64,000 nucleotides of DNA, taken from NCBI GenBank assembly GCA_046726415.1, contig JBKPAK010000020.1, positions 1,995 to 65,994 on the forward strand. The letters run 5' to 3'. Shown one piece after another: positions 24,332 through 62,571 of the stretch; within the stretch, counting starts at the first letter, position 1; each line of letters starts with the position of its first letter. The notes beneath the pieces were generated by a model, which made no database searches, was not told the origin of the DNA, and was given only the letters and a program-made list of their open reading frames with translations. A program made the position numbers and the translations under genes. The DNA is from Candidatus Methylomirabilota bacterium (GTDB lineage: Bacteria; Methylomirabilota; Methylomirabilia; Rokubacteriales; CSP1-6).

Positions 24332-24464
24332 ATGAGGTCACGGGCCTCACATTTCGCCGTCGCTCGCGCGGCGCCGCGTTCGGTTTGCTGTCAGGCGTCT
24401 CCCTGGCTGGTTTACCATGGCTTCCCAACAACCTGGAGCGCGCTCCACGCATGGGAGATTCGGC

Positions 24465-25598: not shown

Positions 25599-25602
25599 AC
25601 CG

Positions 25603-44063: not shown

Positions 44064-47000
44064 AGCTCGATCTCGTCTCGAGCCCCGATTGGTGCGGAGT
44101 GCTCTTTTCCCGAGGCCCACGTGAGGGTGTCCACGACCTCGGCCAGCCCGGCTACCGTGGGGGCGATGAAGAGGCTGCGCAGCGGCAGCTCCACGGCGAA
44201 TTGCTCGCGAGCGCGCGCGATCAGGCGGGCCGCCAGGAGTGAATGGCCGCCCAGGTCGAAGAAGTTATCGTGGATATCGACGCGATCCTGCTGCAGGACG
44301 TCGGCCCAGATGGCAGCCAGTGCCTTCTCGGTGTCGGAGCGAGGTGAAGCAGTCGGCCGATCGGCTCTCCCAGACTCGTCCCGGGCGGGAAGAGCCCGAC
44401 GGTCGACCTTGCCGTTGGGGGCTAACGGCAGCGCGTCCAGGACGACGAAGGCCGAAGGGATCATGTACTCGGGAAGCCGTCGGCGGAGGTGAACCCGAAG
44501 CTCGGTCTCGCTGAGGTCTGCTCCGGCTACGGCGGAGGTCACGTAGGCCAACAGCCGCTTGAGCTCAGGCGCGTCCTCCCGCAGCACGACCACACTCTCG
44601 CGAACGCCGGGACACCGGGCCAGGGCGTTCTCGACCTCGCCGAGCTCGATGCGGAAACCCCGGAGCTTGACCTGATGGTCGAGGCGGCCCAGGTAGTCGA
44701 GGGTGCCATCGGCCCGGTAGCGGGCGAGGTCACCGGTCTTGTAGAGGCGGGCGTTTGGATCGGCGCTGAACGGATGTCGGATGAACTTCTGGGCGGTGAG
44801 ATCGGGGAGGTGCAGATAGCCGTGGGCCAGGCCGCATCCTCCGATGTGCAGCTCGCCGGGAACGCCGACAGGTACGGGCTGCAAGTGGGGGTCGAGGAGG
44901 TAGATCTCGGTATTGGCGATGGGACGGCCGATGGGGACGGGATCGTCGGTGCCCGAGACGCGATGCAAGGTAGACCAGATGGTGGTCTCCGTGGGGCCGT
45001 AGAGATTCCAGACACTGACGCCGCGGCGGCAGAGCGCGGTGGCCAGGTCGGTCGAGAGGGCCTCGCCGCCGCAGAGGATCGCGAGGCCCGGCGTACCGGG
45101 CCAGCTAGCTTCCAGCATCAGACGCCACGTGGCCGGAGTGGCCTGCATGATCGTGACCTGGTGACGCGCGAGCAGGCCGACCAGCTGAGCTCCGTCGCTG
45201 GTGGTGTCGCGGCGGGCGATGATGACGCGAGCGCCCACGAGGAGCGGCAGGAACAGTTCCAATCCGGCGATGTCGAAGGACAGGGTGGTTACGGCCAGGA
45301 GGCAGTCGTGGGCGGTGACACCCGGCGTCCGGAGCATGCTGGCGAGGAAGTTGACCAAGGCCCGGTGCGGGACCTGGACACCCTTGGGCTGGCCGCTGGA
45401 GCCTGAGGTGTAGATGACGTAGGCAACGTCGTCAGCCGTAACCCCGCTGACGGGAGGGGCCTCGGGCTCGAGACTGATCAGATCCCAGTCGGCGTCCAGA
45501 TAGACCGTTTGGGCGTCGTGGTTGTCCAGCGTGTCCTCGAGCGCGCGCTGGGTGACAAGGATAGGGGCCTGGGCGTCGGCGAGCATGAAGGCCAAGCGCT
45601 CGGGGGGGTAGGTGGGATCCAGGGGCACATACGCTCCGCCCGCCTTGAGGATGCCCAGCACGCCGACGAGCATGTCGAGGGAACGCTCGACGCACAGGCC
45701 GACGCGGCAGTTGGGGCCGACGCCGCGACCGCGCAGGTGATGAGAGAGCTGGTTGGCGCGGCGGTGGAGCTCGCGGTAGGTGAGAGCGGCATCCTCGAAG
45801 ACAGCGGCGATCGCGTCGGGAGAGCACTCGGCCTGAGCCTCGAGGAGATCGGGCAGGGTGGCCTGCTGGGGATGGGCCGCTCCGGTGGCGTTCCAGTCGA
45901 CGAGGAGCTGCCGGCGCTCGTCGTCAGTGAGAAGCGGTAAGGCAGACAGGCGCTCGGTGGGACTGGCCACGATGCCTTCGAGCAGGACTCGGAAGTGGCC
46001 GGCGAGACGCGCGATGGTGGGGGGGTCGAACAGATCGGTGTTGTACTGCAGCGCGCCGCGCAGGCCCTCGCTGCTCTCGCGCAGGAACAGGGTCAGGTCG
46101 AACTCGGAGGCACCCGTTTCGGTGTCGATCGGCCTCGCGGTCAGACCCGGGAGGGCGAGGGCGATGGGAGCGGTGTTCTCCAGCACGAACATCACCTGGG
46201 CGAGCGGGGCGTGGCCGAGGCTCCGCTCGGGACGCAAGTCCTCCACGAGTTTCTCGAAGGGAAGATCCTGGTGGTCGTACGCGTCGAGGGTGACGCGGCG
46301 GACGCGGCCGAGCAGATCGCGGAAGGAGGGGTCGTCAGCTGCGGAGGTCCGGAGGGCCAGCGTATTGACGAAGACGCCTATGAGTGGCTCAAGGTCGGGT
46401 CGGGACCGCCCGGCAATCGGCGACGCCACGACGATGTCGCTCTGCCCGCTGAGGCGATGCACCAGGGTCTGGACGGCGGCGAGGAGGCACATAAAGAGGG
46501 TGACGTCCTCGCGGCGGCTCAGGGCAAGCAAGTCCGCGGTCAGCGCCGCGGGCAGGGCGAAGTAATGGTGGGCGCCGCGATAGCTCTGCACCGCGGGCCG
46601 GGGCCGATCCGTAGGGAGCTCGAGAAGCGGAGGAACGCCGGCGAGCTGCTGGATCCAGTAGGCCCGCTGGGCGGTCACCGCCGGTCCTTCGAGCATCTGG
46701 CGCTGCCAGAGGGCGAAGTCGGCGTACTGGATGGGCAGGGCCGGCAGAGGAGACGGCCGGCCGTGGGTGAAGGCTTCGTAGAGGGCAGCGAGTTCCTGGA
46801 AGAGCACGCCGAGAGACCAGCCGTCGGAGGCGATGTGATGGCTGACCAGGAGGAGGACGCACTCGTCGGCCGCCAGCCGAACCACGGCCGCCCGCAGCAG
46901 CAGATCGCGGGTGAGGTCGAAGGGGCGGCCAGCTTCCTGTCTGAGTAGCCGCCCTAGTTCGGTCTCGCGGGGAGCCGCAGGCCAGGCGCGCAAGTCGACG

Positions 47001-50000
47001 ACGGTTACGTCGGCTGGCCGAGACCCGGCGATGATTTGGACGGGGCTGCCGCGCTGAAAGGCGAAGGTCGTGCGCAGGGCCTCATGGCGCGCGACGAGCA
47101 AGTCCAGACTCTGCTGCAGGGCCGGGAGATCGAGGGCGCCCCCGAGGCGAACAGCGGAGGCGATGTTGTGGAGCGGGCTGTCGGGGGTGAGCTGGTTGAG
47201 GAACCACAGGCGCTGCTGAGCGAAGGAGAGCGGGCAGGGACCCGTATCGAGACGGCGCGGAATTGCCCCATTCTCTGCGCGCGGGGCGAGGTCGCTCGGC
47301 CGGCCGAAGGCAGCGCGGCCTGCGTCGATCAGCGTGGCCAGCTGCGCCACGCTGGGCGACTCGAACAGGGCGCGGAGGGACACGTCGGCGCCGAAGGAAT
47401 CCCGCAGTCGAGCCACCATCCGCATGCCGAGCAAGGAGTGGCCGCCCAGGTCGAAGAAGTTGTCATGGACGCCGACCTCGGGGAGGTCGAGCAGATCGCA
47501 CCAGATCTGAGCGATGAATCGTTCGGTCGCCGTGGTTGGCGGTGCGAGCCGCGGCACTGGAGCCCCGTCCGCAATGGCATCGGGCAACGCAGAGCGATCG
47601 ACTTTCCCGGAGGGCGTGAGCGGCAAGGTTGGGAGGGGCACGAAGACGGAGGGGATCATATAGTGCGGCAGCTTCTGCCCAAGGTAGGCGCGGAGGTCGG
47701 CCGCGGAGGGTTCAGCCCCGCCGCGGCCGACCACGTAGGCCACCAGGCGCTGGTCACCGGAGTGGCTCTCGCGGACGACCACGACTGCGTGGCCCACGAG
47801 CGGGTGCTGCCCCAGAACCGTTTCGATTTCCCCGAGCTCGATGCGGAAGCCCCGAATCTTGACCTGGTGGTCGAGACGGCCGAGGAAGTCGAGCTGTCCG
47901 TCGCTGCGGTAGCGGACGAGGTCTCCCGTCCGATAGAGGCGCGCGCCCGGGCGGCCGGCGAACGGATCCGCCACGAATCGCTCGGCGCTCAGGTCCGGTC
48001 GACCTCGGTAGCCGCGCGCCACCCCCGCGCCGCCGATGTACAGTTCGCCGGGCACGCCCACGGGCCGCGGTTGACCTCGCGGGTCGAGGACGTACACGCG
48101 GGTGTTGGCGAGCGGCCGTCCGATGGAAACGGCGCCGTCCCCGGGCGTCACTCGATGCGCGGTGGACCAGATCGTCGTCTCCGTTGGCCCGTACAGATTC
48201 CAGACCTCGCTGGCGCGGGAGAGGAGCTCCGCGGCCAAGCCGCGCGCGAGCGCTTCGCCCCCACACAGCGCCTTGAACGGCCGGCGGCCTTCCCAGCCGG
48301 CCTCGAGCAGGAGCCGCCACGTGGCAGGCGTCGCCTGCATCACCGTCGTTCCCGATCGCGTGATCCACTGCGCGAGCTGCCGGCCGTCCGCCGCCGCGTC
48401 CTGGCTGACCACCTCGACCTTGGCGCCGACGACGAGCGGCAGGATCAGCTCCAGCACCGCGATGTCGAATGAGATGGTGGTGACGGACAGCATCTGGTCC
48501 GATGGCGTCAGAGTCAGGATCTCCTGCATCGCGCCGAGAAAGTTCGCCACGGCTCGGTGAGGGATCTCCACGCCCTTGGGGCGCCCCGTCGAGCCCGAGG
48601 TGTAGATCGCGTAGGCCAGCGACTCCGGGTCGATCGGTCCCGAGGGGGGCCCGGCGCTGCGGTCAGAGAGTTCCGCACAGTCCGAATCCACATAGACGAC
48701 GGTGGTTGTCCCGGCCGGGACGCGATCGCGGAGCGAGGTCCGCGTCAGAAGAACGACCGCTTGGGAGTCCTCTAACATGAAGCCGAGCCGCTCGGTGGGG
48801 AACGTCGGATCGAGGGGCACATACGCCCCCCCCGCCTTGAGAACGGCCAGGAGCGCCACGACGAGATCTGCGGACCGCTCGAGACAGAGGCCGACCAGGA
48901 CGTCCGGCCCGACGCCGAGTTCACGAAGGCGATGCGCGAGGCGGTTGGCGCGGTGATTGAGCTGCTGGTACGTCACAGTTTCCCCGCCGCACACCACGGC
49001 CACGGCCTCCGGAGTCCGGCCCGCCTGGGCGTCGAAGAGAAGCGGCACGGTCGTGGCCGGATAGTCCCGCTCAGTGGCGTTCCACCGCCCTAAGATCTGA
49101 CCGCGATCCTCCGCTGACAGTACGCTGACGAACCCGATGTTCTGCTGCGGATCGGCGGCCAGCCCCTCCAGAACCGCCTGGTAGGAGCGAAGCCACTGCC
49201 GGATGGTATCGGACTCGAAGAGATCGATGTTGTAGTACCAATCCACCACCAGGTTCCCCGCGGACTGCGCGATGTTCACGTCCACGTCGAAGTTGATCGC
49301 GCGCCGAGGCGGGATGACGAGCTCGGCCTCGAGACCGGCGAACTTCGGCGCCACCGCGGGGGGGTCGAGATTGAAGATCACCGATGTGAGCGGCAGTCGG
49401 CTCCGATCGCGAGGGAGGCGGAGCTTCTCGAGCAGGCTGCCATAGGTGTAGCGCCGGTGATCGTGGACGTCGAAAACGATGGTCTTCAGCGAACTCAAAT
49501 AGTCCGCGAATGGCATGTCAGGCTCGAGGCGGCTCCGCACCGGCAAGAGGCTTGCGCAGTGTCCCACCACGTCGTTGGCGCCTTCTGCCGTCTGCCCTGC
49601 CACCACGATGCCGACGACGATGTCCTCGTGCCCGGTCAGCCGATGGAGCACCACCTTCAGTCCGGCCAGGAGCGCGGTGAAGAGCGTGCTGCCGCGCGAC
49701 GCGCCCAGGTGTCGCAGCGCACGGCCGAGCGCCGCCGGCAACGTGAGGCGTTCTCGGCCCGCCCGGTACGTCTTCACAGCGGGTCGCGGCCGGTCGGCCG
49801 GCAGCTCGAGGACGGGCACAGGGGCCGCGAACTGCTCGAGCCAGTACTGCTCGGTCGCTGTCCGGGCCGCGGTGCCCTCGAGCTCGCGCTCCTCGCGAGC
49901 ATAATCGGCGAACTGCCTGGCCGGACCCAACGGGGCGGTCCGACCCTGGCGGACGGCTGAATAGAGAGTCCCGATCTCCTCGAGCAAGATTCCGAGCGAC

Positions 50001-50503
50001 CATCCGTCCACCGCGATGTGGTGCACGGATACGAGGAGGACGTGGTGCTCCTCGCCGAGCCTCGCGATGCGGGCGCGCAGCACGGGGCCCCGACCGAGGT
50101 CGAATGGGTCCCACACGTCCTGCCGCGCGAGTTCGTCGAGCAGCCCCTCTCGTTGCGCGGGCGGTCGCGCCGACAGGTCGTCCAGGGGCACATCCACCGG
50201 CATGAACGCCTCCAGGATGCACTCCTTTCCATCCGCGCTGAATCGGCTGCGCAGGGCGTCATGTCGCGCAACGAGCTGCTGGATCGCCTCCCGGAGCGCG
50301 CTCACCTGACACGGCCCGCGGAGGTGTACGGCCACCGCGTCGGCGAACGCCCGCGATCCGTCCTCGCCCATCTGGGTGGCCAGCCAGATCTCCCGCTGCG
50401 CCTCGGTCATCGGCAAGGTGGTCGGGGCGGATTGCTCCTGTCTGAACGGATCGAAGTCGACCGGCGTCAACGTGAGGGAAGAGAGACGCGGCTCGGTGGT
50501 CAT
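44060..50503 (-). CDS. NRPS, two modules: C-A(Gly)-T-C-A(Gly)-T
   Basis: 2147 aa from ATG 50503. Approximate domains: C 49139-50416 (HHIAVDG); A 47549-49066; T 47318-47536 (GGHSL); C 45959-47242 (HHIASDG); A 44384-45886; T 44129-44341 (GGHSL). A-core motifs are 'YTSGS(T/S)G.PKG', 'NLYGPTE', 'GELxIGG', 'YxTGD', 'GRxDxQVKxRGFRIELGE' and 'GKVDR'. The first 184 codons of the track ORF are read-through over the PKS gene. Confidence 0.95.
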   Translation of the reverse strand: MTTEPRLSSLTLTPVDFDPFRQEQSAPTTLPMTEAQREIWLATQMGEDGSRAFADAVAVHLRGPCQVSALREAIQQLVARHDALRSRFSADGKECILEAFMPVDVPLDDLSARPPAQREGLLDELARQDVWDPFDLGRGPVLRARIARLGEEHHVLLVSVHHIAVDGWSLGILLEEIGTLYSAVRQGRTAPLGPARQFADYAREERELEGTAARTATEQYWLEQFAAPVPVLELPADRPRPAVKTYRAGRERLTLPAALGRALRHLGASRGSTLFTALLAGLKVVLHRLTGHEDIVVGIVVAGQTAEGANDVVGHCASLLPVRSRLEPDMPFADYLSSLKTIVFDVHDHRRYTYGSLLEKLRLPRDRSRLPLTSVIFNLDPPAVAPKFAGLEAELVIPPRRAINFDVDVNIAQSAGNLVVDWYYNIDLFESDTIRQWLRSYQAVLEGLAADPQQNIGFVSVLSAEDRGQILGRWNATERDYPATTVPLLFDAQAGRTPEAVAVVCGGETVTYQQLNHRANRLAHRLRELGVGPDVLVGLCLERSADLVVALLAVLKAGGAYVPLDPTFPTERLGFMLEDSQAVVLLTRTSLRDRVPAGTTTVVYVDSDCAELSDRSAGPPSGPIDPESLAYAIYTSGSTGRPKGVEIPHRAVANFLGAMQEILTLTPSDQMLSVTTISFDIAVLELILPLVVGAKVEVVSQDAAADGRQLAQWITRSGTTVMQATPATWRLLLEAGWEGRRPFKALCGGEALARGLAAELLSRASEVWNLYGPTETTIWSTAHRVTPGDGAVSIGRPLANTRVYVLDPRGQPRPVGVPGELYIGGAGVARGYRGRPDLSAERFVADPFAGRPGARLYRTGDLVRYRSDGQLDFLGRLDHQVKIRGFRIELGEIETVLGQHPLVGHAVVVVRESHSGDQRLVAYVVGRGGAEPSAADLRAYLGQKLPHYMIPSVFVPLPTLPLTPSGKVDRSALPDAIADGAPVPRLAPPTTATERFIAQIWCDLLDLPEVGVHDNFFDLGGHSLLGMRMVARLRDSFGADVSLRALFESPSVAQLATLIDAGRAAFGRPSDLAPRAENGAIPRRLDTGPCPLSFAQQRLWFLNQLTPDSPLHNIASAVRLGGALDLPALQQSLDLLVARHEALRTTFAFQRGSPVQIIAGSRPADVTVVDLRAWPAAPRETELGRLLRQEAGRPFDLTRDLLLRAAVVRLAADECVLLLVSHHIASDGWSLGVLFQELAALYEAFTHGRPSPLPALPIQYADFALWQRQMLEGPAVTAQRAYWIQQLAGVPPLLELPTDRPRPAVQSYRGAHHYFALPAALTADLLALSRREDVTLFMCLLAAVQTLVHRLSGQSDIVVASPIAGRSRPDLEPLIGVFVNTLALRTSAADDPSFRDLLGRVRRVTLDAYDHQDLPFEKLVEDLRPERSLGHAPLAQVMFVLENTAPIALALPGLTARPIDTETGASEFDLTLFLRESSEGLRGALQYNTDLFDPPTIARLAGHFRVLLEGIVASPTERLSALPLLTDDERRQLLVDWNATGAAHPQQATLPDLLEAQAECSPDAIAAVFEDAALTYRELHRRANQLSHHLRGRGVGPNCRVGLCVERSLDMLVGVLGILKAGGAYVPLDPTYPPERLAFMLADAQAPILVTQRALEDTLDNHDAQTVYLDADWDLISLEPEAPPVSGVTADDVAYVIYTSGSSGQPKGVQVPHRALVNFLASMLRTPGVTAHDCLLAVTTLSFDIAGLELFLPLLVGARVIIARRDTTSDGAQLVGLLARHQVTIMQATPATWRLMLEASWPGTPGLAILCGGEALSTDLATALCRRGVSVWNLYGPTETTIWSTLHRVSGTDDPVPIGRPIANTEIYLLDPHLQPVPVGVPGELHIGGCGLAHGYLHLPDLTAQKFIRHPFSADPNARLYKTGDLARYRADGTLDYLGRLDHQVKLRGFRIELGEVENALARCPGVRESVVVLREDAPELKRLLAYVTSAVAGADLSETELRVHLRRRLPEYMIPSAFVVLDALPLAPNGKVDRRALPARDESGRADRPTASPRSDTEKALAAIWADVLQQDRVDIHDNFFDLGGHSLLAARLIARAREQFAVELPLRSLFIAPTVAGLAEVVDTLTWASGKEHSAPIGARDEIEL

Positions 50504-53500
50504 CGCCTCTCGCCCACCTCTAGGTACTTGCCGGGCCGATCGGGGTCGGGGATGAACCAGGCCTCGCGCCCACTCGGGTCCCGCCCCCTTCGCGCCCCGG
50601 GCAGCGGTGGGGTGGCCGGCCCAGTGCTGGGTAGCAGACCGACCTCCTGCATCTCCGCCACCGTCTCGGCGAACGCCTGGACCACGCGATCGATGTCCTC
50701 GTCCGAGTGCGCCGTACTCAAGAAGGCCGGTCGCCCTTCCCAGACGTGGAGGCCTTTGGCCCGGAGCCACGCGAAGACCACCGGGGCGAACGGATAGTCG
50801 GGCGGCAAGCCTATGCAGAAGAAGGAGCTGAAATGCGTGAGGCGGATCGGGGCCTGCGCCCGCGCGACGACGGCCCTCAGCGCCTCGACCAAGCGCGTCG
50901 TCCGCTCGTTGAGCCGCCGCTGTAGCTCTGGCCCCTCTTCCTCGAGGTGGATCAGGCAGGCCCGGGCGGCGGCCAGGGCCAACGGGTGGCGCACGAAGGT
51001 CCCGGCGAAGAAGGTGACACCGATCTCTGGAAAGGTAAGATCGCCATACTGCCACATGCCCCCGTCGAGAGCGTCCATGAACTCGCGCCGGCCGGTCACG
51101 ATCCCGATCGGTAAGCCTCCGCCGATGACCTTGCCGTAGGTGGCGAGGTCCCCCTGAATGCCGAGCATGGCTTGGACGCCTCCAGGGTGGGCGCGGAAGC
51201 CGGTGACCACCTCGTCACAGATGAGAGCCGTGCCCGAACTGGCGGTGAGCTCGCGGAGCTCGCGCAGGAACTCCCAGGGCTGGAGGTCGGGCCTCCGGCT
51301 CTGCACTGGCTCGACGAGCACCGCGGCCAGCTCGCCCGCCTGAGCCCGCAGCAGGTCGAGGGAGGCCGACTGACCGTACTCGAGGACGATGACATTGTCC
51401 GCCATCCCAGCGGGGATGCCCGGGGCGATCGGGCGCGAACGCAGTACCCCATCGCTCAGGGTGGGGCGCACGAGCACTTCGTCGAACACGCCGTGGTAGG
51501 CGCCGGCGAACATGGCGATCCGGTCGCGCCCGGTCACCGTGCGAGCCAGCCGGATGGCCGCCATCACCGCCTCAGAACCCGTGTTGCAGAAGGCCGCGCG
51601 GTCCATCCCGGTGAACGCGCAAAGTCGCCGGGCCACCTCGCCGGCCAGCGGTGATTGGGGACCGATCTCAAATCCCAGCCGCAGCTGGGCCTCAACGGCC
51701 GCGGTCACGAACGGCGGGGCGTGGCCGAAGAGGACCATTCCGAAGCCGTTGGTCAAGTCGACGTACTCGTTCCCATCCACGTCCCACAGCTTCGAGCCGG
51801 CGGATCGGACGGTGACGATCGGGTAGACCGCTTCCTTCCAAGGCAGACGGAAGCCCGCCACCGAACGCGGATCGGCCAGGTGGCGACGGTGCTGTTCAGC
51901 CAGGCGCTTGGAGCCCTGGGTGCGCGCCGTGTAGCGGGTGATGAAGGCCTCCAGGCTTCTCTGCTGGGACGGTGTGAGGCCGCCACCCGTGCCCTTGTCG
52001 ATCGGCCGGTAGGGCCCGAAGGCCCGGGACTCTTGACTCGCGGAGTCGGCCAAGGCGGCTTGGTAGGCCGGGCTCACGGGCACGCCGTCAGGCGGCCGCT
52101 CTGGGGTTGCGCGGGCGCCTCCGCCGGCGGATGCCGCAGGGGCGCCACTGCGCAGGAGGTCGAGCTGTCTGGACATCAGCTCGAGCTGCTGGGCGACCAG
52201 CCATTCCACGGAACCGACGGCGGCGTCGGGTTTCTCGCGCCGCGGAACCTCGAAGCGAGAGCCATCCTCCTGGCTTTCCGGCCGGACAGCCGACCCTCGA
52301 GGTACAACCTCGCTCGACTCGGTCGTAGACGAGACGGGGACACGGACGGAGGGGGCCGGCGACGGGTTGGGCGGCAAGGTGCGATCCAACCAATCCGCCA
52401 ACGCTCCGGGCGACGCGAGATCCTCGAGGAGCTGTCGGAAGCTGATCTTCACGCCGAAGGCCTTCTGTATCGCCGCGCTGGCCTGAGTGAGGCTAAGGGA
52501 GTCCAGGCCGGCCTCCACAAACGGGGTGTCGTGGTCCAGCGCCGCGGCGTCGATGCCGGAAAGCTCCGCGAACAGAGCTCGCACGCGGCCCAGTAGGATA
52601 GCGTGCCGACCTGGCGTCGGGGTGACCTCGACAGGAGTGTCTGCCATGCTCTCCTCGCTCCGACTGTCGTCCGCGGCGGCCGTCGGAATCCCCGCCATCC
52701 CGACCGCCGTCACGGTTTCCGGCGACGCCTCCGGCGCTCGTTCGGCGCTGGTGGGCGGGTCGATCCAGAACCTCTGCCGCTCGAACGGATAGGTCGGCAG
52801 CGGCAGGCGACGGCGCCGCTGCCCGTCGTGGACCGCCGCCCAGTCGATGTCGGCTCCGGCGATCCAAAGACGTCCCAGGGCATCGAGAATCGATTCGATG
52901 TCAGGGCCCGCATTCTCGTCGAGCGGCAGCGAAGCGATCACTGTCTGGCCTGCGGACCGATCGGTGTGCTGTCGAGCCAGCGCGGTGAGGCTCCGGCCCG
53001 GGCCGACCTCGAGGAGCAGTTGGCTGCCTTCGCGCACGAGCAGAGCCACGCCGTCGGCGAATCGGACAGGTTGCCGGAGCTGTCGCGCCCAGTACGCTGC
53101 GTCCATTGCCTCTGCGGCGGTGATCCACTGCCCGGTCACGCCGGACACCCACGGCACCTGTGGAGGCTTGAGGCGGACACCTCGCATGACCGCCTCGAAT
53201 GGCTTGAGGACGGAGTCCATCATGGAAGAGTGGAAGGCGTGCGAGGTCGGAAGCCGGCGGAAGGCGACGCCGCGTGCGCCGAGTTCCGCCTCAAGAGCCT
53301 GAACCGCCTCCGCGTTCCCCGCCACGACCGTGACCGCGGGGCCGTTAAGCGCGGCCACCGATAGGGTGCCAGACAGAAGCGGCTCGACTTCAACCGCGGG
53401 GAGTCGCACGGCGAGCATCACGCCGCCCGGCATGCTCTGCATGAGCCTCGCCCGCTCGGCGACCACCCGCAGGGCATCCTCACGCGAGAGGACGCCGGCC

Positions 53501-55422
53501 AGGCACGCCGCCACGTATTCGCCGAGGCTGTGGCCAATCATCGCCTGGGGCTTCACCCCCCAGCGCATCCAGAGGTCGGCCAGCGCATACTCGATGGCGA
53601 ACAGGGCGGGCTGGGTGACGCGCGTTTCCTCGAGGAGGGCCGCGGCCGCCGCGGCGCCAGTGGCATCCGGATAGAGCACCGTTCGTAGGTCCAGCTCCAG
53701 CTCCGGCTGCAGAGTCTCCGCGCATTCGTCGACGGCGGTCCGAAAGGCCGCCTCGCCCTGGTAGAGTCCCCGCGCCATGTTCACCCGCTGCGCGCCCTGC
53801 CCGGGGAACAGGAAGACCACGGGCGCCGCGCGGGCATCGCACTGGGTGCTCACCAGGTGCTCGGCCTCCGGCCGGCGTAGCGAGGTGATGGCCTCGGCAC
53901 CATCACGGCACACCAGCATCCGCCGATGGGCGAATCGCCGGCGGCCGGCCTGGAGCGTGAAGGCCACATCGGCGAGGTCGAGTCCCGGCGACGTCTCCAG
54001 GCACCGGGCGAGGCTGGCCGTGGCCTGTTCGAGGGCAGAGGCCGTCCTTGCCGAGATCACCAGCAACTGCTCGCGCCGGGCCGGCGCCGGACCCGGCGGT
54101 GTTGGCGCCTCTTCCAAGACCACGTGAGCGTTGGTGCCGCCCACGCCGAAAGAGCTCACCCCGGCTCGGCGCGGCGTCCCGCCCGGCGGCCAGTCAACCA
54201 GCCTCGTGGCAACGTAGAACGGGCTGTTCTCCAATTCGAGCTTCGGATTCGGCGCTGTGAAGTGCAGACTGGGGGGAATCTTTCGATGCCGCAGGGCCAT
54301 CGCGGCCTTGATCAGGCCGACGATCCCCGCCGCCGCGTCCAAATGCCCGATGTTCGTCTTCACCGACCCGACGGCGCAGAAGCGAGTCGCGGAAGTACCG
54401 GCCCGGAAGGCCTGGGTGAGCGCGGCGATCTCTACCGGGTCCCCAAGGGGGGTCGCGGTGCCGTGCGCCTCGACCAGGGAGATGGTTTCCGGCTCCACGC
54501 CAGCGAGAGACTGGGCCAGAGCGATGCACTCGGCCTGGCCATCCACGCTGGGCGCCGTGAAGCTCACCTTGGTGGCGCCATCGTTGTTGAGCGCCGCCCC
54601 CTTGATTACCGCGTAGACGTTGTCGCCGTCGGCCAGTGCGTCGGCCAGGCGCTTGAGCACGACGATGCCGACCCCATTGCTGAATACGGTGCCCGCGGCC
54701 TCGACGTCGAAGGCCCGGCAGTGGCCGTCAGGGGACGTGATGGCGCCTTCCTGATAGAGATATCCGCGTTGCTGGGGGAAGGTGATGGACACGCCGCCGG
54801 CTAGCGCCGTGTCGCACTGATAGTCGATCAGGGCCTGCACGGCCTGACAGACAGCCACCAGCGAGGTCGAGCAGGCGGTGTAGACGCTCACGCAGGGCCC
54901 GCGCAGATCCAGCTTGTAGGCGACCCGGGTGGCCAGGTAGTCCTTTTCATTGCCCATCATGACAAGCAGACCGCCCGCCCGCTGGATCGCGACCGGATTG
55001 GGATACAAGTTCTCCAGGAAGTAGGTGTTGTTGCTCATCCCAGCCCAGACGCCGATCGCACCCCGGTACATCCTCGGGTCATAGCCCGCATCCTCGAGCG
55101 CGGTCCAAGCCGTTTCCAGGAACACCCGCTGCTGAGGATCCATGACGGCCGCCTCGGTGGGGTTGATGCCGAAAAACGCGGCATCGAACAGCTCGGCGCC
55201 GGGCAGGACACCCCGCGCCGGCACGTAATTCGGGTCCTTCCTCATACCGGGTGATTCGGCCCGACAGGGCTCTAGCTCGTCGGTCGCGAAGCGAGAAATC
55301 GACTCGACTCCGCCCTCAATGTTCCGCCAGAATTCCCCCACGTCCCGGGCACCGGGGAAGCGTCCGGCCATCCCGATGATGGCCACGCCGTCCATGGGAT
55401 CTCCGTGATCCGAGTGCGCCAT
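50500..55422 (-). CDS. Type I PKS module fused to a class III (PLP) aminotransferase: KS-AT-ACP-AMT
   Basis: 1640 aa. KS 54112-55392 ('YTACSTSLVA', 'EAHGTATPLGDP', 'KTNIGHLDAAAG'). AT 52933-53823 ('FPGQGAQ', 'GHSLGEY', 'SHAFHS', the malonyl-type HAFH). ACP 52387-52620 ('GLDSLSL'). AMT 50653-52020 ('DLTNGFGMVLFGH', 'NTGSEAVMAAIRLAR', 'LICDEVVTGFR', 'YGKVIGGGLP'). I recognised no KR, DH, ER or MT motifs. Confidence 0.95.
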   Translation of the reverse strand: MAHSDHGDPMDGVAIIGMAGRFPGARDVGEFWRNIEGGVESISRFATDELEPCRAESPGMRKDPNYVPARGVLPGAELFDAAFFGINPTEAAVMDPQQRVFLETAWTALEDAGYDPRMYRGAIGVWAGMSNNTYFLENLYPNPVAIQRAGGLLVMMGNEKDYLATRVAYKLDLRGPCVSVYTACSTSLVAVCQAVQALIDYQCDTALAGGVSITFPQQRGYLYQEGAITSPDGHCRAFDVEAAGTVFSNGVGIVVLKRLADALADGDNVYAVIKGAALNNDGATKVSFTAPSVDGQAECIALAQSLAGVEPETISLVEAHGTATPLGDPVEIAALTQAFRAGTSATRFCAVGSVKTNIGHLDAAAGIVGLIKAAMALRHRKIPPSLHFTAPNPKLELENSPFYVATRLVDWPPGGTPRRAGVSSFGVGGTNAHVVLEEAPTPPGPAPARREQLLVISARTASALEQATASLARCLETSPGLDLADVAFTLQAGRRRFAHRRMLVCRDGAEAITSLRRPEAEHLVSTQCDARAAPVVFLFPGQGAQRVNMARGLYQGEAAFRTAVDECAETLQPELELDLRTVLYPDATGAAAAAALLEETRVTQPALFAIEYALADLWMRWGVKPQAMIGHSLGEYVAACLAGVLSREDALRVVAERARLMQSMPGGVMLAVRLPAVEVEPLLSGTLSVAALNGPAVTVVAGNAEAVQALEAELGARGVAFRRLPTSHAFHSSMMDSVLKPFEAVMRGVRLKPPQVPWVSGVTGQWITAAEAMDAAYWARQLRQPVRFADGVALLVREGSQLLLEVGPGRSLTALARQHTDRSAGQTVIASLPLDENAGPDIESILDALGRLWIAGADIDWAAVHDGQRRRRLPLPTYPFERQRFWIDPPTSAERAPEASPETVTAVGMAGIPTAAADDSRSEESMADTPVEVTPTPGRHAILLGRVRALFAELSGIDAAALDHDTPFVEAGLDSLSLTQASAAIQKAFGVKISFRQLLEDLASPGALADWLDRTLPPNPSPAPSVRVPVSSTTESSEVVPRGSAVRPESQEDGSRFEVPRREKPDAAVGSVEWLVAQQLELMSRQLDLLRSGAPAASAGGGARATPERPPDGVPVSPAYQAALADSASQESRAFGPYRPIDKGTGGGLTPSQQRSLEAFITRYTARTQGSKRLAEQHRRHLADPRSVAGFRLPWKEAVYPIVTVRSAGSKLWDVDGNEYVDLTNGFGMVLFGHAPPFVTAAVEAQLRLGFEIGPQSPLAGEVARRLCAFTGMDRAAFCNTGSEAVMAAIRLARTVTGRDRIAMFAGAYHGVFDEVLVRPTLSDGVLRSRPIAPGIPAGMADNVIVLEYGQSASLDLLRAQAGELAAVLVEPVQSRRPDLQPWEFLRELRELTASSGTALICDEVVTGFRAHPGGVQAMLGIQGDLATYGKVIGGGLPIGIVTGRREFMDALDGGMWQYGDLTFPEIGVTFFAGTFVRHPLALAAARACLIHLEEEGPELQRRLNERTTRLVEALRAVVARAQAPIRLTHFSSFFCIGLPPDYPFAPVVFAWLRAKGLHVWEGRPAFLSTAHSDEDIDRVVQAFAETVAEMQEVGLLPSTGPATPPLPGARRGRDPSGREAWFIPDPDRPGKYLEVGERR

Positions 55423-55423
55423 G

Positions 55424-58400
55424 CTACGGGTTCCGGCCGATCCTTCGCGGTCGGGATTGCGCGTCCCGCTGGCGCCGAGCCCGATCTCGAACGTGGCTCA
55501 GGCAAGATGCCTCGTTCGGCTGGTGGCTGAGGTAGCCGGCCAGCGCACTGACGGTGGGGTATTGGAGCAGCGCCACGATGGGAAGGTTCAGGCCCAGCCG
55601 GGCCTGGAGCCGGGTGTGGGTCTCGACGAGCAGAATAGAGTGCCCGCCGAGATCGAAAAAGTTATCGTCGAGCCCGACCCGCTCTACTTCGAACAGCTCC
55701 TGCCAGATCGCGGCGATGGCCTGCTCGAGCCGCGTGCGCGGGGCGAGATACGCCGCGCCCTCCTTCGAGCGGTGATCGAGCCCCGCGACCGCCAGCTGCC
55801 CGTCTGGAGGTGGAGGCAGCACCGCCAGGATGTCGGCGATCGTCCGTCGCGTGGCGGTAGTCATGGCCTCGAGGACCGCGGCCAAAGCGGCGAGCGAGCG
55901 GCGGATCGCCGCGCCGTCGAACTGGTTGCGGCGGTAGATCATCTTCAGCCGGAGCTCAGGAGCCGGCGTCACCACCAGAGTCAACGGATAGTTGGTCGCC
56001 TCCGGCATCGAGACCGGAGCGATCTCGACGGTTGGTCCCAGCCGGCGCGCCTCCTGGCTGACGGCGTAGTTCTGGAAGACGAGCAGACTGTCGAACAGGC
56101 GAAGCCGCCACGGAATGCCCGTCCAGGCCTGAATCTCGAGCGGGGAGACGTACTGGTGGAGCACGGCATCGGCCTGCTTGTCCTGTGCCTCGGCGAGCCA
56201 GACCGGTACAGACATCTCCGGCCTGACCTGGAGCCGGATGGGGAGATTGCTCACGAAGGTCCCCACCATCGATTCGATACCGGCCACCTTAGGTGGTCGC
56301 CCGGAGAACGTGACCCCGAAGACCACGTCGGCCTGGCCACTGCGATGGCTCAGGAGTAAGCCCCATGCCCCTTGGACGAGCATGCTCAAGGTGAGGTGAT
56401 AGCTCCGCGCAAACGAACGGAGGGCCGCCCCAGTCCGCTCTGACAGCCTCACCTCTTCCTCGGCGTGCGACTGCCCTGCGCCCTCTGAGCGTCCCGCCGG
56501 CGCAGGCGGCAAGCCGAGCGGGGTGGGCGCGGTGAAGCCCGCGAGCCAGCGCCGCCAGAAGGCCTCGGTCTCCGTACTGTTCCGACCTTCCAGCCAGCCG
56601 ATGTAGTCGCGGTACGCGTGGGGGGGCGCGAGTCTGGCATCTCGGCCCGCGCGGAGGGCTTCGTAGCACTCCGACAGCTCGGAGAAGATTAGGGGCCACG
56701 ACCAGCCGTCGACGTGGAGGTGATGGGTGGTCCAGAGAAGGTGGAACGTTTCGTCGGCCAACCGGAGGAGCGTCACGCGCGTGAGTGGAGCCCGCGACAG
56801 GTCGAAGCCCTGAGCGGCGTCCGACTCCACGAGTTCGGCCAGTCGCGTGCTCTGGTCGGTGGCGGAGAGAGCACTCCAGTCGTGCTCGCTCCACGGCAGC
56901 GCCACGCGGCGGACGACGACCTGCAACTCCCGCTGGCCGTCGGAGACGAAGGCGGTGCGGAGAATCGAGTGCCGATTGACGACCAGTTCCCACGCGCGCC
57001 GCAGCGCCGGCGCGTCCACCGAGCCGTGCAGGCGGTACTGCCACTGCTCCAGCCCGGAGCCGGCGGCCTCCATCGAGTGAAACAGGCGCTGCATGGGAGA
57101 CAACGCGTATATGTCTTCCACCTCCTCGAGGTCGCAGGGAAGCCGGTCGAGAAGAGCCAGGTCGAACGCCGCCGGCGCGACGTGGGCCGGCCGTGCGTCA
57201 GTTGCCCCTCGCGTCTCACAGGCCAGGAGCACTTCGCGCACAGCCTCGACGAAGCTCTGGGCCAATCGCTCCACCGTCTGCCGGCGGTGGATGTTTTCGC
57301 TGTACGTCCACCGCATCTGGAGCCGTCCGTGAATGACCAGGGCCAAGAGGTCGATCAGGTGCCGCCGCGGAGCTCGTGGGCTGTGCCAGGGGCCGGCGGG
57401 TTCCGCGGCGAAGCGGAAGAGGCCGGAGCCGGCCAGAACCTGGTCGAACTGACCGAGGTAGTTGAACAGCACCGCGGGCTGGGGATGGTCGCCGAGGAGG
57501 GTGGCGGTGGTCGGATCGCCGAGGTAGCGAAGGACGCCGTAGCCAATGCCTCGGCCCGGGACCTGCCGCAGTTGCTCCTTCACCGCGTGGAGCACGTCGG
57601 CGAGGGGACCACGCGGGGGCTCGAGCCGCAGCGGGAAAATGCTGGTGAACCAACCCACGGTCCGCGAGAGATCCACATCGTCGAAGATCGCCTCCCGACC
57701 GTGGCCCTCGACATCCACGCAGAGGGACCCGCCCTTCGTCCATCCGGTGAGGCACCGCGCCAGCGCCGCCAACAAGACGTCGTCGACCTGCGCGCGGAAT
57801 ACTTGGGGCACCCGCTGCAGTAGCGCACGTGTCTCCTCGATCCCGATGGACCACGTCACGGTTCGAGCGGACATCTCGGTGTTGGCACCGCCCTCGAAGT
57901 CGACAGGGAGGCGGGCGGAGTCCACGTTCGCGGTGGCCAGCCAATGACTGAGCTGATTCCGGCAGGCTGGCCACTGCGCGTACTCAATGAGCCGCTGCGC
58001 CCAACGCCGATACGACGTCGTCCGGGCGGGCAGCCGCACCGTGTCGCCCCCATGCAGTGCTCGGTAGAGCGTGTCCACATCCCCCAAGAGGATTCGCCAG
58101 GACACCCCATCGATCACCAAATGATGGGCGATGACAAGGAGCCGGCCCGGGCGCCGGGGGCCGAGTCCGAAGTGGGCTATTCGCAGGAGTGGGCCATCGG
58201 CGATGTCGAGAGTGCGCTGGAGCTCAGTCGCCTTCGCTTCGATGGCGGCTGGCAATTCGGCGTCTGGCCGTCCAGAGAGGTCTATCTCCGCGACAGAGAT
58301 GGTCCCGCCATCGTTGCTATAGCGCTGCTCCCAGCCGTGGGCGCCGCGCCGGAACCGCAGCCGGAATGAGTCGTGGTGATCGACGACGTGCTGGCTTGCC

Positions 58401-61400
58401 GCTTCCAGAGCCTGTACATCCACGTCGGTCGGCACCTCGAACAGGAAGGCTTGGTTCCAGTGATCAGGCTCCGGTAGTTCCTGCTCGAAGAACCAGCGCT
58501 GGATCGGAGTGAGGGGAACGCACCCCTCCGCTCGATGGCCGTCGTCCTGCGGCGTCGCGACTGCCGTCACCGCAGCCAGCTCGGCGATCGTCGAGTGCTG
58601 GAACAGCTCCCGAGGCGTGAACGATAGACCAGCCTGACGGGCGCGCGCGATGATCTGGATCGCGAGAATCGAGTCCCCGCCCAGCTCGAAGAAGCTGTCG
58701 TGGACGCCAACCCGCTCGAGCCCGAGCACGGCGGCCCAGATGCCGCTCAGGGTCTCCTCGATGGCCGTCCGGGGAGCCACGTAGCCCCCACGCACGTCGG
58801 GACGCGTCTGATCGAGTGCGGGCAACGCCTTTCGGTCCACCTTCCCGTGGCCGGTTAGCGGGAGCCCGTCGAGCCGCACGAACGCGGCGGGCACCATGTA
58901 GTCGGGAAGCTTGGCCCGCAGGAAGCCGCGTATCTCGTCGGCCATGAGCGGCGCGTCGCGGTCAGCGACGTAGTACGCCACCAGCCTCTTGTCGCCCGGG
59001 ATGTCCTCACGGACGATGACCACCGACTCCCGCACCGCCGAGTGCTGGGCCAGCGCCGATTCGATCTCCCCCAACTCGATCCGGAAGCCCCGAATCTTCA
59101 CTTGGTCGTCGATTCGGCCGAGGTACTCGAGATCCCCATTGGGCAGCCGCCGTGCCAAGTCCCCCGAACGGTAGAGCCGCGCGCCCGGAGCGGCAGTGAA
59201 CGGGTCGGCGATGAATCGCTCGGCGGTGAGCTCGGGCCGGTTCAGGTAGCCACGCCCCACGCCGGCACCACCTATATAGATCTCCCCGGCCACTCCGATC
59301 GGGACGGGACGGAGCCAGCGATCCAGAACATAGACCTGGAGGTCTGGGATCGAACGGCCGATGACGCTGCCGCTGCCGGAAAGGACGTCGTTGAGCGCGA
59401 TCGGACGGTAGGTGACATGCACGGTGGTCTCGGTAATGCCGTACATGTTGATGAGCCGAGGCGGCCGATCTCCAAACCGCTCGAACCAGGGCCGCAGCGC
59501 TTGCAGGTCCAGCGCCTCGCCGCCGAAGATAACGTACCGAAGGGCGAGCCCACGCGACTCGCCCTCCAGTATCACCTGCATCAGCTGTCGAAATGCCGAC
59601 GGCGTCTGGTTCAACACCGTCACCTGCTCCCGGTACAACAGCTCGGCGAACGCCTCCGGCGAGCGACTCACCCAGTAGGGCACCAGCACGAGCCGGCCTC
59701 CGTACAAGAGCGCGCCCCACAGCTCCCACACGGAAAAGTCGAACGCGTACGAGTGGAACAGGGTCCATGCGTCCGCGGGGCCGAAGCGGAACCACGGGTC
59801 GGTGGCGTCCATGAGCCGGACGACGTTCCGATGGGTGATGAGGACGCCCTTGGGACGCCCGGTGGACCCTGACGTGTAGATGACGTAGGCCAGGCTGTCG
59901 GCCGTAGCGCCGCCGGAGACATTGTCTTCGGCTGCGCCGCCGTCAGCTGCCTCTTCGCCCGAATCGCCCTCGAGCAGGACCATCCGAGCTCGATGCGGGG
60001 GCAGTGCGGAGGCCAGTTCGCCCTGGGTCAGCAGAACGGCGACTTCGGAATCCTCCAGCATGAAGGCGAGGCGATCCTTGGGGTACCGGGGATCGAGTGG
60101 GAGATAGGCGCCCCCCGCCTTCAGGATGGCGATGATCGCCATGACCATGTCCACGGATCGCTCGACGAAGAGCCCGACCAAAACCTCCGGCCCCACGGAG
60201 AGCTCCCGCAGGCGGCGAGCCAGCCGGTTTGCGCCGCGGTTCAGCTGTCGGTAGGTCAGCGCCCGCCCATCATGGATCACCGCCACCGCGTCCGGCGTTC
60301 GCGCAACCTGCCGCTCGAATCGCTGGTGAATGCACAAGCCGTTGGCGGGGCCGATGGGGAGTGGGTTCGGGCTAGGCACCAGCTCGGCGCGCTCTGTCGC
60401 GGTGAGATACGGCACCGCCCGCAGCGGTTGGTCTGCGGCAGTGATCATCCCCTCGAGAAGGAGGCCGACATGATCCAGCATCCGCGCCGCGGTGTCGTCG
60501 TCGAATCGCCGGCGGTCGTACTCCAGGCGAAGGAGCAGCTCGGCGTCCGCATAGGCAATGAAGGTGAGCGGGTAGTTCGTCTGCCCGAGGTAGCGAAAGC
60601 GCCGGCCGGTCCACTCTCCTCCCTGCGCGCGCAACGCGGTGTTCAGGAGGTAGCGCTCGTAGACCACGAGACTCTCGAAGAGCGGCGTACCGCGCGGCAC
60701 GTCGCTCCAGTCCTGGATCTTGACCAGCGGTGTGTGCTCGTGCGCGCGCAGGGCCACCCCTTGGCGGCGAAGCTCTCGCAGCCAGGGCACGAGCGGCGCG
60801 TCGGATTTCACGCGAACCCGAACGGGCAGGGTATTGATGAACAGCCCCACCATGTCGTCGGCACCCTCGAGGGACGAGCGCCGACAAGCCCGGGTGGCCC
60901 CAAAAACGATGTCGTCCTCGCCGCTGTAGATGTGAAGCAAGAGCGCCCAGGCGCCTTGCAGCAGGGTGTTGACCGTGAGCTCATGCTTCTCGGCGAAGTC
61001 CCGGAGCCCGGCGGTGACGTCGGCGGCCACTCGTGCCTCGTGGGCGCCGTGAGTTCCCTGCGCGGCAGGTGCCGTGCGCGGGTTTTGCCCCACTCGCAGC
61101 GGCGTCGGTGTCGTGAAGCCTTTGAGCAGGCGCCGCCAGTACTCTTCCGCGCGGGCGGGATCCTGTCCATGCAGCCACTCGATGTAGTCGCCGTACGGCC
61201 GCGGCAGGGGAAGGTCGAGCTCCCGCCCGTCGCGGATCGCCTCGTAATAGGCGAAGACCTCCCGGAGCACGAGCGGGAAGGAGCGCCCGTCGAGCACGGC
61301 GTGGTGGAACGTCCACAACAACCGGGCCACTCGGCCGGGTAGCCAGACCAGGGTCAGGCGCATCAGCGGCGCCTGGCTCACGTCGAAGCCTCGCCGGCGA

Positions 61401-61753: not shown

Positions 61754-62571
61754 GAGTCAACCCCAGGACCTTCGTGGAGCCGCCTCTTGTGGCCCACCCA
61801 TGCCCCGCACACCAGACGTTCGATAGCGCCCTCGACGGCAATCGCCGCGACATGGCTCCGATCGATCGGCACCTCATGAAGGCTGAAGTGCTCGCTCTCG
61901 CCCGGACTGTTCTCGATGCGCAGCAATCGAGCCGGCTCCCCGGGCGCAAAGGCCACGTCAAAGTTCGCGAGAGGGTAGGAGAGCCCCTGCCCGAGGGCCT
62001 TGACGATTGCCTCCTTCCGCGTCCAGCAGCGAAAGAACGCGGAGAGCTGCTCGTCAGGTCGCAGCGACCGGAGCACTTGACGCTCCTGGGCCGAGAAGAC
62101 GCTGGCGGCTAGCTCGTCGAGGTCCTCTACCGCTCGGATCAGCTCGATATCGACGCCGATCTCTCGGTCGCGCGTCAGTGCGCACAGGGCAAGCCCATGT
62201 GAATGGGACAGGTTGAAGCGGAGCCCGTCCCCGCCCGCATCCCCGGATAGGGAGGGCTTGCCATGAGCGCTGTACTCGAACTCGAGCCGATCCGGGTCGA
62301 CGCCACAGTAGCCGGCCAAGACCTCCCGCAGGAAGCCGCGGCCGACCACAAACCGCTTCCGGTCCCGCTCGAAGTGAAACCTCGCCGCCCGTGCCGCCTC
62401 ATCCGCGGACAGCGCGCTGGCGAGCCGCCGAACCTCGGGCGCGAGCTGATCCAGATCCGCCACCCACACATGGATTTCGCCTCCGGGCAGCGGGACGCTG
62501 GCTGCCGGAGTCGGCAAGCATAGGGATCGAGGACCCGCTTGGACGTTGGACTCGAAGTGCACCACCGTCAC
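61741..62571 (-). CDS. 4'-phosphopantetheinyl transferase, Sfp type (first gene of the NRPS/PKS operon)
   Basis: 'EIHVWVADL', 'HGKPSL', 'FNLSHSHGL', 'GVDIELI', 'FFRCWTRKEAIVKALG'. The start is uncertain (GTG 62571 or a downstream TTG/GTG). Confidence 0.85.
   Translation of the reverse strand: MTVVHFESNVQAGPRSLCLPTPAASVPLPGGEIHVWVADLDQLAPEVRRLASALSADEAARAARFHFERDRKRFVVGRGFLREVLAGYCGVDPDRLEFEYSAHGKPSLSGDAGGDGLRFNLSHSHGLALCALTRDREIGVDIELIRAVEDLDELAASVFSAQERQVLRSLRPDEQLSAFFRCWTRKEAIVKALGQGLSYPLANFDVAFAPGEPARLLRIENSPGESEHFSLHEVPIDRSHVAAIAVEGAIERLVCGAWVGHKRRLHEGPGVDSCVP

Follow-up and report, generated by a model that had tools for sequence, protein, structure and literature searches.

A stand-alone KS-AT-ACP-AMT module fed by an NRPS carrier and predicted to place a 3,4-diamino-type unit within a peptide

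Introduction

Aminotransferase (AMT) domains are known for setting β-amino groups on the lipid or polyketide tails of lipopeptides and microcystins. In McyE and NdaF, ketosynthase (KS), acyltransferase (AT), acyl carrier protein (ACP) and AMT domains of a polyketide synthase (PKS) module are followed by nonribosomal peptide synthetase (NRPS) modules, and the β-amino group is set on a β-keto thioester. Here we analyze a stand-alone KS-AT-ACP-AMT module, denoted P1, that is encoded in a 64,000-nucleotide stretch of DNA (the window; all coordinates below refer to it) from a Candidatus Methylomirabilota bacterium (contig JBKPAK010000020.1), between two NRPS proteins, P2 and P3. We consider it likely, judging from the sequences and from related loci, that these proteins form a collinear NRPS-PKS-NRPS line in which P1 would make a γ-acylamino-β-amino (3,4-diamino-type) unit at a mid-chain position.

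The closest described modules are those of MycA and ItuA (mycosubtilin, iturin), which have the same make-up, likewise without reductive domains, and in which a condensation (C) domain takes the β-aminoacyl-ACP next. There are two differences. The KS of MycA is primed with a fatty acid loaded by an acyl ligase and an ACP, whereas the donor in the window is an NRPS condensation-carrier (C-T) pair without an adenylation (A) domain; and the AMT of MycA is fused to the next C domain, whereas P1 is a separate protein with its own putative docking tail. Compared by description, McyE and NdaF (microcystin, nodularin; Adda) differ from the window in that the KS receives a polyketide chain from a PKS ACP, whereas the chain in the window would be a peptide.

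For an A-less module preceding a KS, the nearest parallel is yersiniabactin HMWP2, ArCP-Cy-A-PCP-Cy-PCP, in which one A domain serves two carriers before the KS of HMWP1. The likeness is one of domain order rather than of alignment: both have a single A domain with two carriers, a second module that lacks an A domain, and a KS on the next protein; relatives of the window cluster with the layout FkbH-T-C-A-T-E-C-T also mirror the carrier-first arrangement. However, the cyclization (Cy) domains of HMWP2 make thiazolines from Cys, whereas the window has an epimerization (E) domain and DCL-type C domains and uses Thr (Thr or Ser in the relatives), and the PKS of HMWP1 contains methyltransferase (MT) and ketoreductase (KR) domains where that of the window contains an AMT.

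AMT modules behind NRPS parts have been listed before. The survey of Milano et al. (2013) includes A-CP-KS-AT-CP-PLP1 from Pedobacter heparinus, C-A(Gly)-CP-KS-AT-CP-PLP1-C-A-CP from Salinisphaera and a stand-alone KS-AT-CP-PLP1 in a predicted Nrp-Nrp-Mal-Gly cluster of Thiocapsa marina 5811 (PMC3870968). The Thiocapsa string matches the window by description only, and because such layouts are catalogued there, an NRPS A-T before KS-AT-ACP-AMT is not unique to the window. The survey gives domain strings only, with no product or mechanism and no remark on an A-less module or a Cys thioesterase. In the open-access literature, we found no characterized compound and no enzyme study of such a module, similar layouts appearing only in that survey. 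The window adds a mid-chain AMT module that would be fed by an A-less module, in a widespread family of orphan clusters; the architecture itself has been seen before.

Results

Domain content of P1

All Pfam matches in P1 (Table 1) have E-values far past the chance level, and the catalytic motifs are all intact. The KS carries Cys184 in TACSTSL (nt 54859-54879), His320 in EAHGT and His360 in NIGH; the AT carries GHSLG (Ser632) and HAFH (residues 728-731, nt 53230-53241); the ACP carries GLDSL (Ser975); and the AMT carries TGSEA, YHG, DEVVTGFR (Asp1403) and YGKVIGGG (Lys1431, nt 51115-51138). The AT and ACP are connected by a linker of 85 aa, and the stretch of about 120 aa between the ACP and the AMT is of low complexity, with one conserved helix. 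No KR, dehydratase (DH) or enoylreductase (ER) domain was found in P1 with Pfam. A preliminary description, made from the letters alone, had proposed an intact Cys-His-His KS, a malonyl-type AT, no reductive domains and a class III aminotransferase dependent on pyridoxal phosphate (PLP) behind the ACP, all of which is borne out by these matches and motifs (for the last, Aminotran_3 with Lys1431). The feature that it placed at 50653-55392 is real and covers approximately residues 11-1590 of the open reading frame (ORF) 50500-55422, but the description left out that the ORF lies on the minus strand. The A-less donor module, the status of P1 as a separate protein, the Cys thioesterase and the layouts listed in 2013 were absent from it as well.

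For comparison, we gathered a set of related loci by context look-ups and three collection scans, with the C2 alignment alone (C2 being the second C domain of P2) used for the scan of genomes. Altogether, 106 loci were scored with the layout C-A-T-E-C-T, then KS-AT-ACP-AMT, then C-A-T, then a thioesterase (TE), often with a phosphopantetheinyl transferase (PPTase). Individual loci of the set are denoted below by L and a number.

The aminotransferase domain

The AMT lies directly behind the ACP of a KS-AT-ACP without KR, DH or ER, as in MycA-type modules. It has the marks of a fold-type I, class III PLP domain: the Schiff-base Lys (Lys1431), the Asp that faces the pyridine nitrogen (Asp1403) and the GSEA motif for phosphate binding. 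It matches the crystal structure of the MycA AMT (6KFM, E-value 1e-142 over 453 residues; also 6KFR and 6KFU), with YGKVIGGG aligned opposite YGKIIGGG of MycA, and the bit score is 479 against MycA vs at most 188 against glutamate-1-semialdehyde (GSA) aminomutases. A Foldseek search with an AlphaFold2 model of the domain (mean predicted local distance difference test score, pLDDT, 74.7) returned 6KFU and 6KFM first, with template modeling (TM) scores of 0.75-0.84, 50% identity and an E-value of 2e-41, and GSA aminomutases next (7e-29). Two checks that the preliminary description had called for thus came out in favor of a MycA-type domain: the PLP-binding residues are present on alignment, with the Schiff-base Lys in register with that of the MycA AMT, and the top structural matches of the model are MycA AMT structures. 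By all sequence criteria except the priming of the KS, the window module is a MycA-type AMT module.

If the AMT were silent or had another activity, the product would keep a β-keto (Ibu-like) unit. This possibility is raised by loci L120 (11924-19108) and L125 (8710-13482), which lack the AMT and have the layout KS-AT-ACP-C-A-T-TE, keeping the rest, including the Cys thioesterase. However, seven family members from different phyla, just 63-68% identical to the window sequence overall, all keep Lys, Asp, GSEA and YHG, and the great majority of loci retain the AMT. The domain is, moreover, about 50% identical to the MycA AMT, which has been functionally characterized and moves the amine from Gln onto an ACP-bound β-keto thioester (PMC3870968). 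A β-keto product appears highly improbable on this evidence.

The ketosynthase and its donor

To the N-terminal side of the KS in the proposed line lies the C-terminus of P2, which consists of the C2 domain, a carrier (T2) with the motif FFDLGGHSIL, and a short basic tail. P2 and P1 are separated by 1 nt, in agreement with the earlier proposal of an NRPS carrier as the upstream donor. T2 follows C2 after about 30 residues, with no A domain between them (55529-57121, minus strand), and this A-less C2-T2 module is invariant in all related loci with the C-A-T-E-C-T and KS-AT-ACP-AMT layout. The part upstream of the KS is an NRPS C-T and not the acyl ligase and ACP of fatty-acyl priming; an NRPS carrier directly upstream of the KS is kept throughout the 106 scored loci.

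We pulled 136 KS domains from the gathered loci, labelled each by its upstream neighbor and measured pairwise identity to the window KS. Identity is 61-72% for KSs fed by C-T and 53-66% for those located in one ORF behind amino-acid-specific A-T didomains, the specificity codes of which keep the D235/K517 anchors (DALWLGGTFK, Val type; DVQFIAHVVK, Pro type; DFWNIGMVHK, Thr). The identity drops to 35-46% for KSs primed by acyl ligases, including those of Bacillus loci with an iturin-like layout (46% for L058 and L060). Among solved structures, the closest KS-ATs are 8XJY, 8XJZ and 8XJU (826 bits; 55% identity of the KS to 8XJY), vs about 500-560 bits for the KS-ATs of DEBS. The entry also holds a chain named 'Peptide synthetase', and 8XJY/8XJZ is probably ClbI with ClbH.

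KS0 domains are defined by the loss of the catalytic His (NaPDoS2, PMC9582728). Because its Cys-His-His set is complete, the window KS is neither a KSQ nor a KS0, so that a non-elongating KS, which would have undermined the earlier prediction, is not what is found; by pairwise identity, the closest KSs are carrier-fed ones. Together, these comparisons support an elongating KS that would accept a carrier-bound aminoacyl or peptidyl chain.

The upstream NRPS

P2 contains three Condensation, one AMP-binding and two PP-binding matches to Pfam. The Stachelhaus code of its A domain is DFWNIGMVHK, that is, Thr. The middle condensation-type domain has the epimerase set PIQxWF, HHLVIDGVSW, EGHGRE, RTVGWFT and FNYLGQ. 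The outer two, C1 and C2, share 40% identity; both carry HHxxxDG and are DCL-like, with best matches to the DCL-type C domains of McyB (8HLK), PvdL, SrfA-C and TycB, so neither is a Cy domain.

C1 stands at the N-terminus of P2 with no loading module before it in the window, and the PPTase gene abuts it. A classical lipoinitiation starter C domain was considered for C1 and rejected: the solved starter C domain 7C1H matches only at about 1e-8, whereas McyB matches at 5.5e-106 and both SrfA-C and TycB at about 1e-56 to 1e-59. C1 could, nevertheless, function in N-acylation despite its non-starter family. In relatives, C1 is preceded by FkbH-T (for example, in L117, L135 and L154) or, in L153, by a free A(Gly)-T, and the N-terminal group of the peptide, X, would be a glyceryl unit or Gly, respectively.

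Order of the assembly line

In many relatives, KS-AT-ACP-AMT-C-A-T-TE is encoded as one ORF, and one subfamily has FkbH-T-C-A-T-E-C-T as its first protein (FkbH match of 291 bits vs a cutoff of 147). Therefore, the first NRPS initiates and the TE ends the line. As read from these fused relatives, the order NRPS, PKS-AMT, NRPS, TE is fixed, and by the same layouts T2 alone can feed the KS, with which the middle part begins.

Two conserved tails fit this order. The basic tail behind T2 (RDRARRQRDA...R) is conserved in relatives. The tail behind the AMT, GARxGRDxxGxxAWFxPDPxRPGKYL, predicted to form short β-strands, is confined to proteins that end with the AMT, and AMT-C fusions lack it. The two tails probably serve in docking.

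An iturin-like, non-collinear order would start with a fatty-acyl-primed KS making a β-amino fatty acid and continue through P3 and then P2. Such an order would provide C1, an orphan at the P2 N-terminus for which the cluster holds no donor, with a donor; furthermore, we know of no characterized AMT module that acts on anything other than fatty acyl or polyketide chains, and the sister group described below includes terminal C-T-TE modules without an A domain. Nevertheless, the KS identities (35-46% to acyl-ligase-primed KSs vs 53-72% to carrier- or amino-acid-primed ones) speak against it, the fused ORFs set the TE after a P3-type module, and the FkbH-T-C relatives make P2 the initiator. In the window itself, the TE gene, which encodes an N-terminal docking domain, lies directly behind P3, with its GTG start overlapping the P3 stop (GTGA). 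We regard the iturin-like order as the least probable of the alternatives.

Proposed route and loading of T2

On the collinear reading, A(Thr) would charge T1 and, as in yersiniabactin HMWP2, T2, and C1 may attach an N-terminal acyl group. The E domain would make D-(allo)Thr, and the DCL-type C2 would form X-D-Thr-Thr-S-T2. With the P2 tail docked on P1, the KS would condense the peptidyl chain with malonyl-ACP to give a γ-(acylamino)-β-keto thioester, which the AMT would turn into the β-amine, probably with Gln as the donor, as in MycA. If T2 carries Thr, the resulting 3,4-diamino-type unit would be a 3-amino-4-acylamino-5-hydroxyhexanoyl unit. The C-terminal tail of P1 would then dock on P3, which would add Gly-Gly, and the Cys thioesterase would release the chain by hydrolysis or by cyclization through the β-amine or a Thr hydroxyl.

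The least certain step of this route is the loading of T2, and two alternatives bear on it. T2, which has no cognate A domain, might be charged in trans by the Gly A domains of P3 or by an A domain elsewhere, giving, for example, a 3,4-diaminobutanoyl unit. A-less C-T modules do occur repeatedly in the wider family, terminal C-T-TE among them, and in L153 a free-standing A(Gly)-T lies upstream. However, no conserved stand-alone A domain is found beside the approximately 130 related loci, C2-T2 stays conserved while the specificity of the downstream A domain changes (Thr, Ser, Ala, Gly), and the in-cis precedent of HMWP2 fits the T-C-A-T-E-C-T layout of the FkbH subfamily; loading in trans is, accordingly, unlikely in our judgment. 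Alternatively, with no A domain in module 2, C2-T2 could be a mere relay or be skipped, so that the KS would extend (acyl-)D-Thr directly and the vicinal diamine would derive from the first Thr. In the variants L383, L391 and L160, C-A-T-E-C-T passes straight to other NRPS modules or to a TE, which is compatible with such a role. But C2 is an ordinary DCL-type domain behind an E domain, with HHxxxDG intact, T2 keeps the usual lead-in that follows A domains ('APRT...IW'), and we know of no C domain that moves a chain onto an empty carrier thiol. This makes the relay quite improbable. The central prediction survives the uncertainty over T2, because a T2 that is loaded in trans or acts as a relay still gives such a unit: the unit remains of the 3,4-diamino type in either case.

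Several points weigh against the collinear route. No product and no cultured producer were found. As L120 and L125 lack the AMT, the amine is dispensable in some members. The KS was placed by pairwise identities and a ranking of PDB structures, not by a tree with curated reference KSs. C1, DCL-like and without a donor module in the window, makes the N-acylation uncertain, and the residue on T2, which has no adjoining A domain, is assigned to A(Thr) by the analogy to HMWP2. On balance, sequence analysis and comparative genomics support the γ-acylamino, β-amino unit that the preliminary description had predicted.

Chain termination

The A domains of P3 both have the code DILQLGLIWK, that is, Gly, by motif reading; extraction from a MAFFT alignment left a gap at position 299 of the first. 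The motifs HHIAVDG and HHIASDG of P3 are intact. The nucleophile of the TE is Cys in place of Ser, in the motif GGYCLGG, behind a TubC-type docking domain. Among the TE stretches scored in loci of this layout, fused or discrete, 38 of 43 have GxCxGG; the TEs of the sister group are mostly of the Ser type.

Cys thioesterases form a β-lactone in the case of ObiF and a β-lactam in the case of SulM (PMC6668435, PMC11298585). The window TE shares the Cys nucleophile and GxCxG with both. It differs from SulM in having Tyr-Cys-Leu where SulM has Gln-Cys-Asn (PMC11298585), and from both in that it is discrete, with a docking domain, and the chain in the window would end in Gly-Gly, the last residue having no β-nucleophile. 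Strained-ring chemistry of the ObiF/SulM type is not expected in the window because of the Gly-Gly end and the absence of Gln-Cys-Asn. Cyclization by the TE through the predicted β-amine is possible, and relatives that end in Thr or Ser could form a β-lactone.

Distribution and variation of the family

A counterpart of P1 that is 99% identical is present in a Joint Genome Institute (JGI) metagenome, and more than 100 full-length, stand-alone homologs have 55-60% identity. The named homologs all come from metagenome-assembled genomes (MAGs), of Binatia, Gemmatimonadales, Dormibacteria, Angelobacter, Burkholderiaceae and Rhodanobacteraceae. Likewise, the related loci that share the layout, about 130 in number, are metagenomic contigs or MAGs only, and their hosts span at least 12 phyla or classes. 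The 106 scored loci include about 50 GTDB species representatives, every one a MAG, from Gemmatimonadota, Gamma-, Beta- and Alphaproteobacteria, Acidobacteriota, Actinomycetota and Verrucomicrobiota, as well as Chloroflexota, Myxococcota, Nitrospirota, Methylomirabilota, Planctomycetota and Aminicenantes. A protein search with C2-T2 yielded only proteins of less than 1000 aa and no cultured source.

Across the 57 metagenome loci scored for A-domain specificity, the first A domain is for Thr in 53 and for Ser in 4. The A domain that follows the AMT is less uniform (Thr in about 13, Ser in about 9, Gly in about 8, Ala type in about 5-7). Accessory genes vary as well: a JmjC/Cupin_8 oxygenase gene lies beside 42 of the 106 loci, a gene for a 340-aa protein without a Pfam or NCBIfam match beside 23, and a glycosyltransferase gene beside loci of the FkbH subfamily (examples of accessory genes are L147:2210-3169, L348:1624-2643 and L135:2-2101). 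The window was checked for all three, and none was found. The PPTase gene is linked to the cluster in many relatives. Some natural variants lack domains: the AMT is absent from L120 and L125, and L383 and L391 have no PKS at all, their C-A-T-E-C-T being followed directly by NRPS modules.

In a sister group, KS-AT-ACP-AMT is preceded by, and usually fused with, an amino-acid-specific A-T, and a one-module NRPS comes next, which may or may not include a TE; the hosts include cultured Pedobacter, Mucilaginibacter, Spirosoma, Winogradskyella and Variovorax, along with Nostoc and Lautropia MAGs. Part of this group is a compact cluster, A(Pro-like or Val)-T-KS-AT-ACP-AMT, in L012, L015 and L082 (Pedobacter), L016 and L027 (Variovorax), L022, L043 and L054. 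It continues with C-A-T-TE in Bacteroidota and with C-A(Gly)-T-C-T in Variovorax, and usually includes a PPTase. The compact cluster is predicted to make a free 3,4-diamino acid starter; no product was found for it.

Genomic context of the cluster

The window has a G+C content of 64-71%, and codon-position G+C was used for telling real genes from spurious ORFs. The cluster is an operon of five genes on the minus strand, about 19.5 kb in length, in the order PPTase, P2, P1, P3, TE (Table 1). The four junctions all show translational coupling, with three overlaps and one 1-nt gap: in addition to those given above, the 3' end of the PPTase gene overlaps the P2 start codon and the P3 ATG at 50500 overlaps the P1 stop (TGATG). 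An ORF at 44060-51055 overlaps P1 by 555 nt; a frameshift was considered and rejected, this being an in-frame upstream extension of P3, the true start of which is the ATG at 50500. None of the five cluster proteins passes the NCBIfam cutoff for a named equivalog; the PPTase has a HetI-like match of 224 bits, under the curated cutoff. Rfam, promoter and terminator scans gave no matches.

Table 1. Genes of the cluster and the domains of P2 and P1, in the order of transcription
Feature	Coordinates	Strand	Remarks
Sfp/HetI-type 4'-phosphopantetheinyl transferase (PPTase)	61741-62571	-	first gene; Pfam ACPS and AASDHPPT_N
NRPS P2	55424-61753	-	2109 aa; C1-A(Thr)-T1-E-C2-T2
P2 C1	60389-61717	-	
P2 A, Thr-specific	58829-60319	-	only A domain of P2
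P2 T1	58571-58753	-	
P2 E	57149-58531	-	E1-E7 motifs in translation
P2 C2	55826-57121	-	
P2 T2	55529-55729	-	C-terminus of the protein
P2 basic C-terminal tail	55427-55528	-	
PKS module P1	50500-55422	-	1640 aa; stand-alone KS-AT-ACP-AMT; third of five genes
P1 KS	54259-55392	-	Pfam ketoacyl-synt N and C, residues 11-388, E 2e-69 and 5e-42
P1 KS-AT linker	53872-54252	-	Pfam, residues 391-517
P1 AT, malonyl-type	52873-53817	-	Pfam Acyl_transf_1, residues 536-850, E 2e-54
P1 ACP	52387-52587	-	Pfam PP-binding, residues 946-1012, E 2e-15
P1 AMT, MycA-type PLP aminotransferase	50620-51978	-	Pfam Aminotran_3, residues 1200-1564, E 5e-48
P1 C-terminal putative docking tail	50503-50619	-	conserved
NRPS P3	44060-50500	-	2146 aa; C-A(Gly)-T-C-A(Gly)-T
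Discrete releasing thioesterase (TE)	43059-44063	-	Pfam TubC_N and Thioesterase

Past the TE, the genes are on the opposite strand and have a catabolic look (CoA-transferase, luciferase-like oxygenase, thiamine pyrophosphate (TPP) enzyme, amidohydrolase); they are probably unrelated to the cluster. A second Sfp-type PPTase is encoded at 23582-24331 (minus strand), within a group of genes at 21811-27860 that comprises a P450 (21811-22998, minus), a DAO-type FAD oxidoreductase (24417-25598, plus), an ORF without a Pfam match (25603-26919, minus) and an α/β hydrolase (26916-27860, minus); no carrier protein was seen around it. PBP1A, encoded at 7835-10231 (plus strand), has no relative above 38% identity among 185,579 GTDB species-representative genomes, and by this distance the lineage of the window seems poorly sampled.

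Discussion

Three unusual features meet in the window cluster: the A-less module before a KS, the AMT in mid-chain and the Cys thioesterase. Should the prediction hold, the AMT device, placed in mid-peptide, would write a vicinal diamine into the backbone. In open-access text, no β,γ-diamino (vicinal diamine) building block was found reported for a characterized NRPS or PKS. We put forward, only tentatively, that the family might make a new class of short peptides, with a β,γ-diamino acid built from Thr, malonate and a transaminase in the backbone, and with a Cys-TE that closes a small diaza-ring through the β-amine or, alternatively, with an imidazoline or a metal ligand as the outcome. The diaza-ring would be 7-membered in the common one-module version and 10-membered in the window.

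With five genes in about 19.5 kb, the cluster is compact enough to be expressed as one piece and is a well-defined target for genome mining. It could also be used to test how KS and AMT domains handle peptidyl substrates, which would be useful for engineering amine-containing hybrid peptides. The cluster is conserved across many soil phyla of uncultured bacteria.

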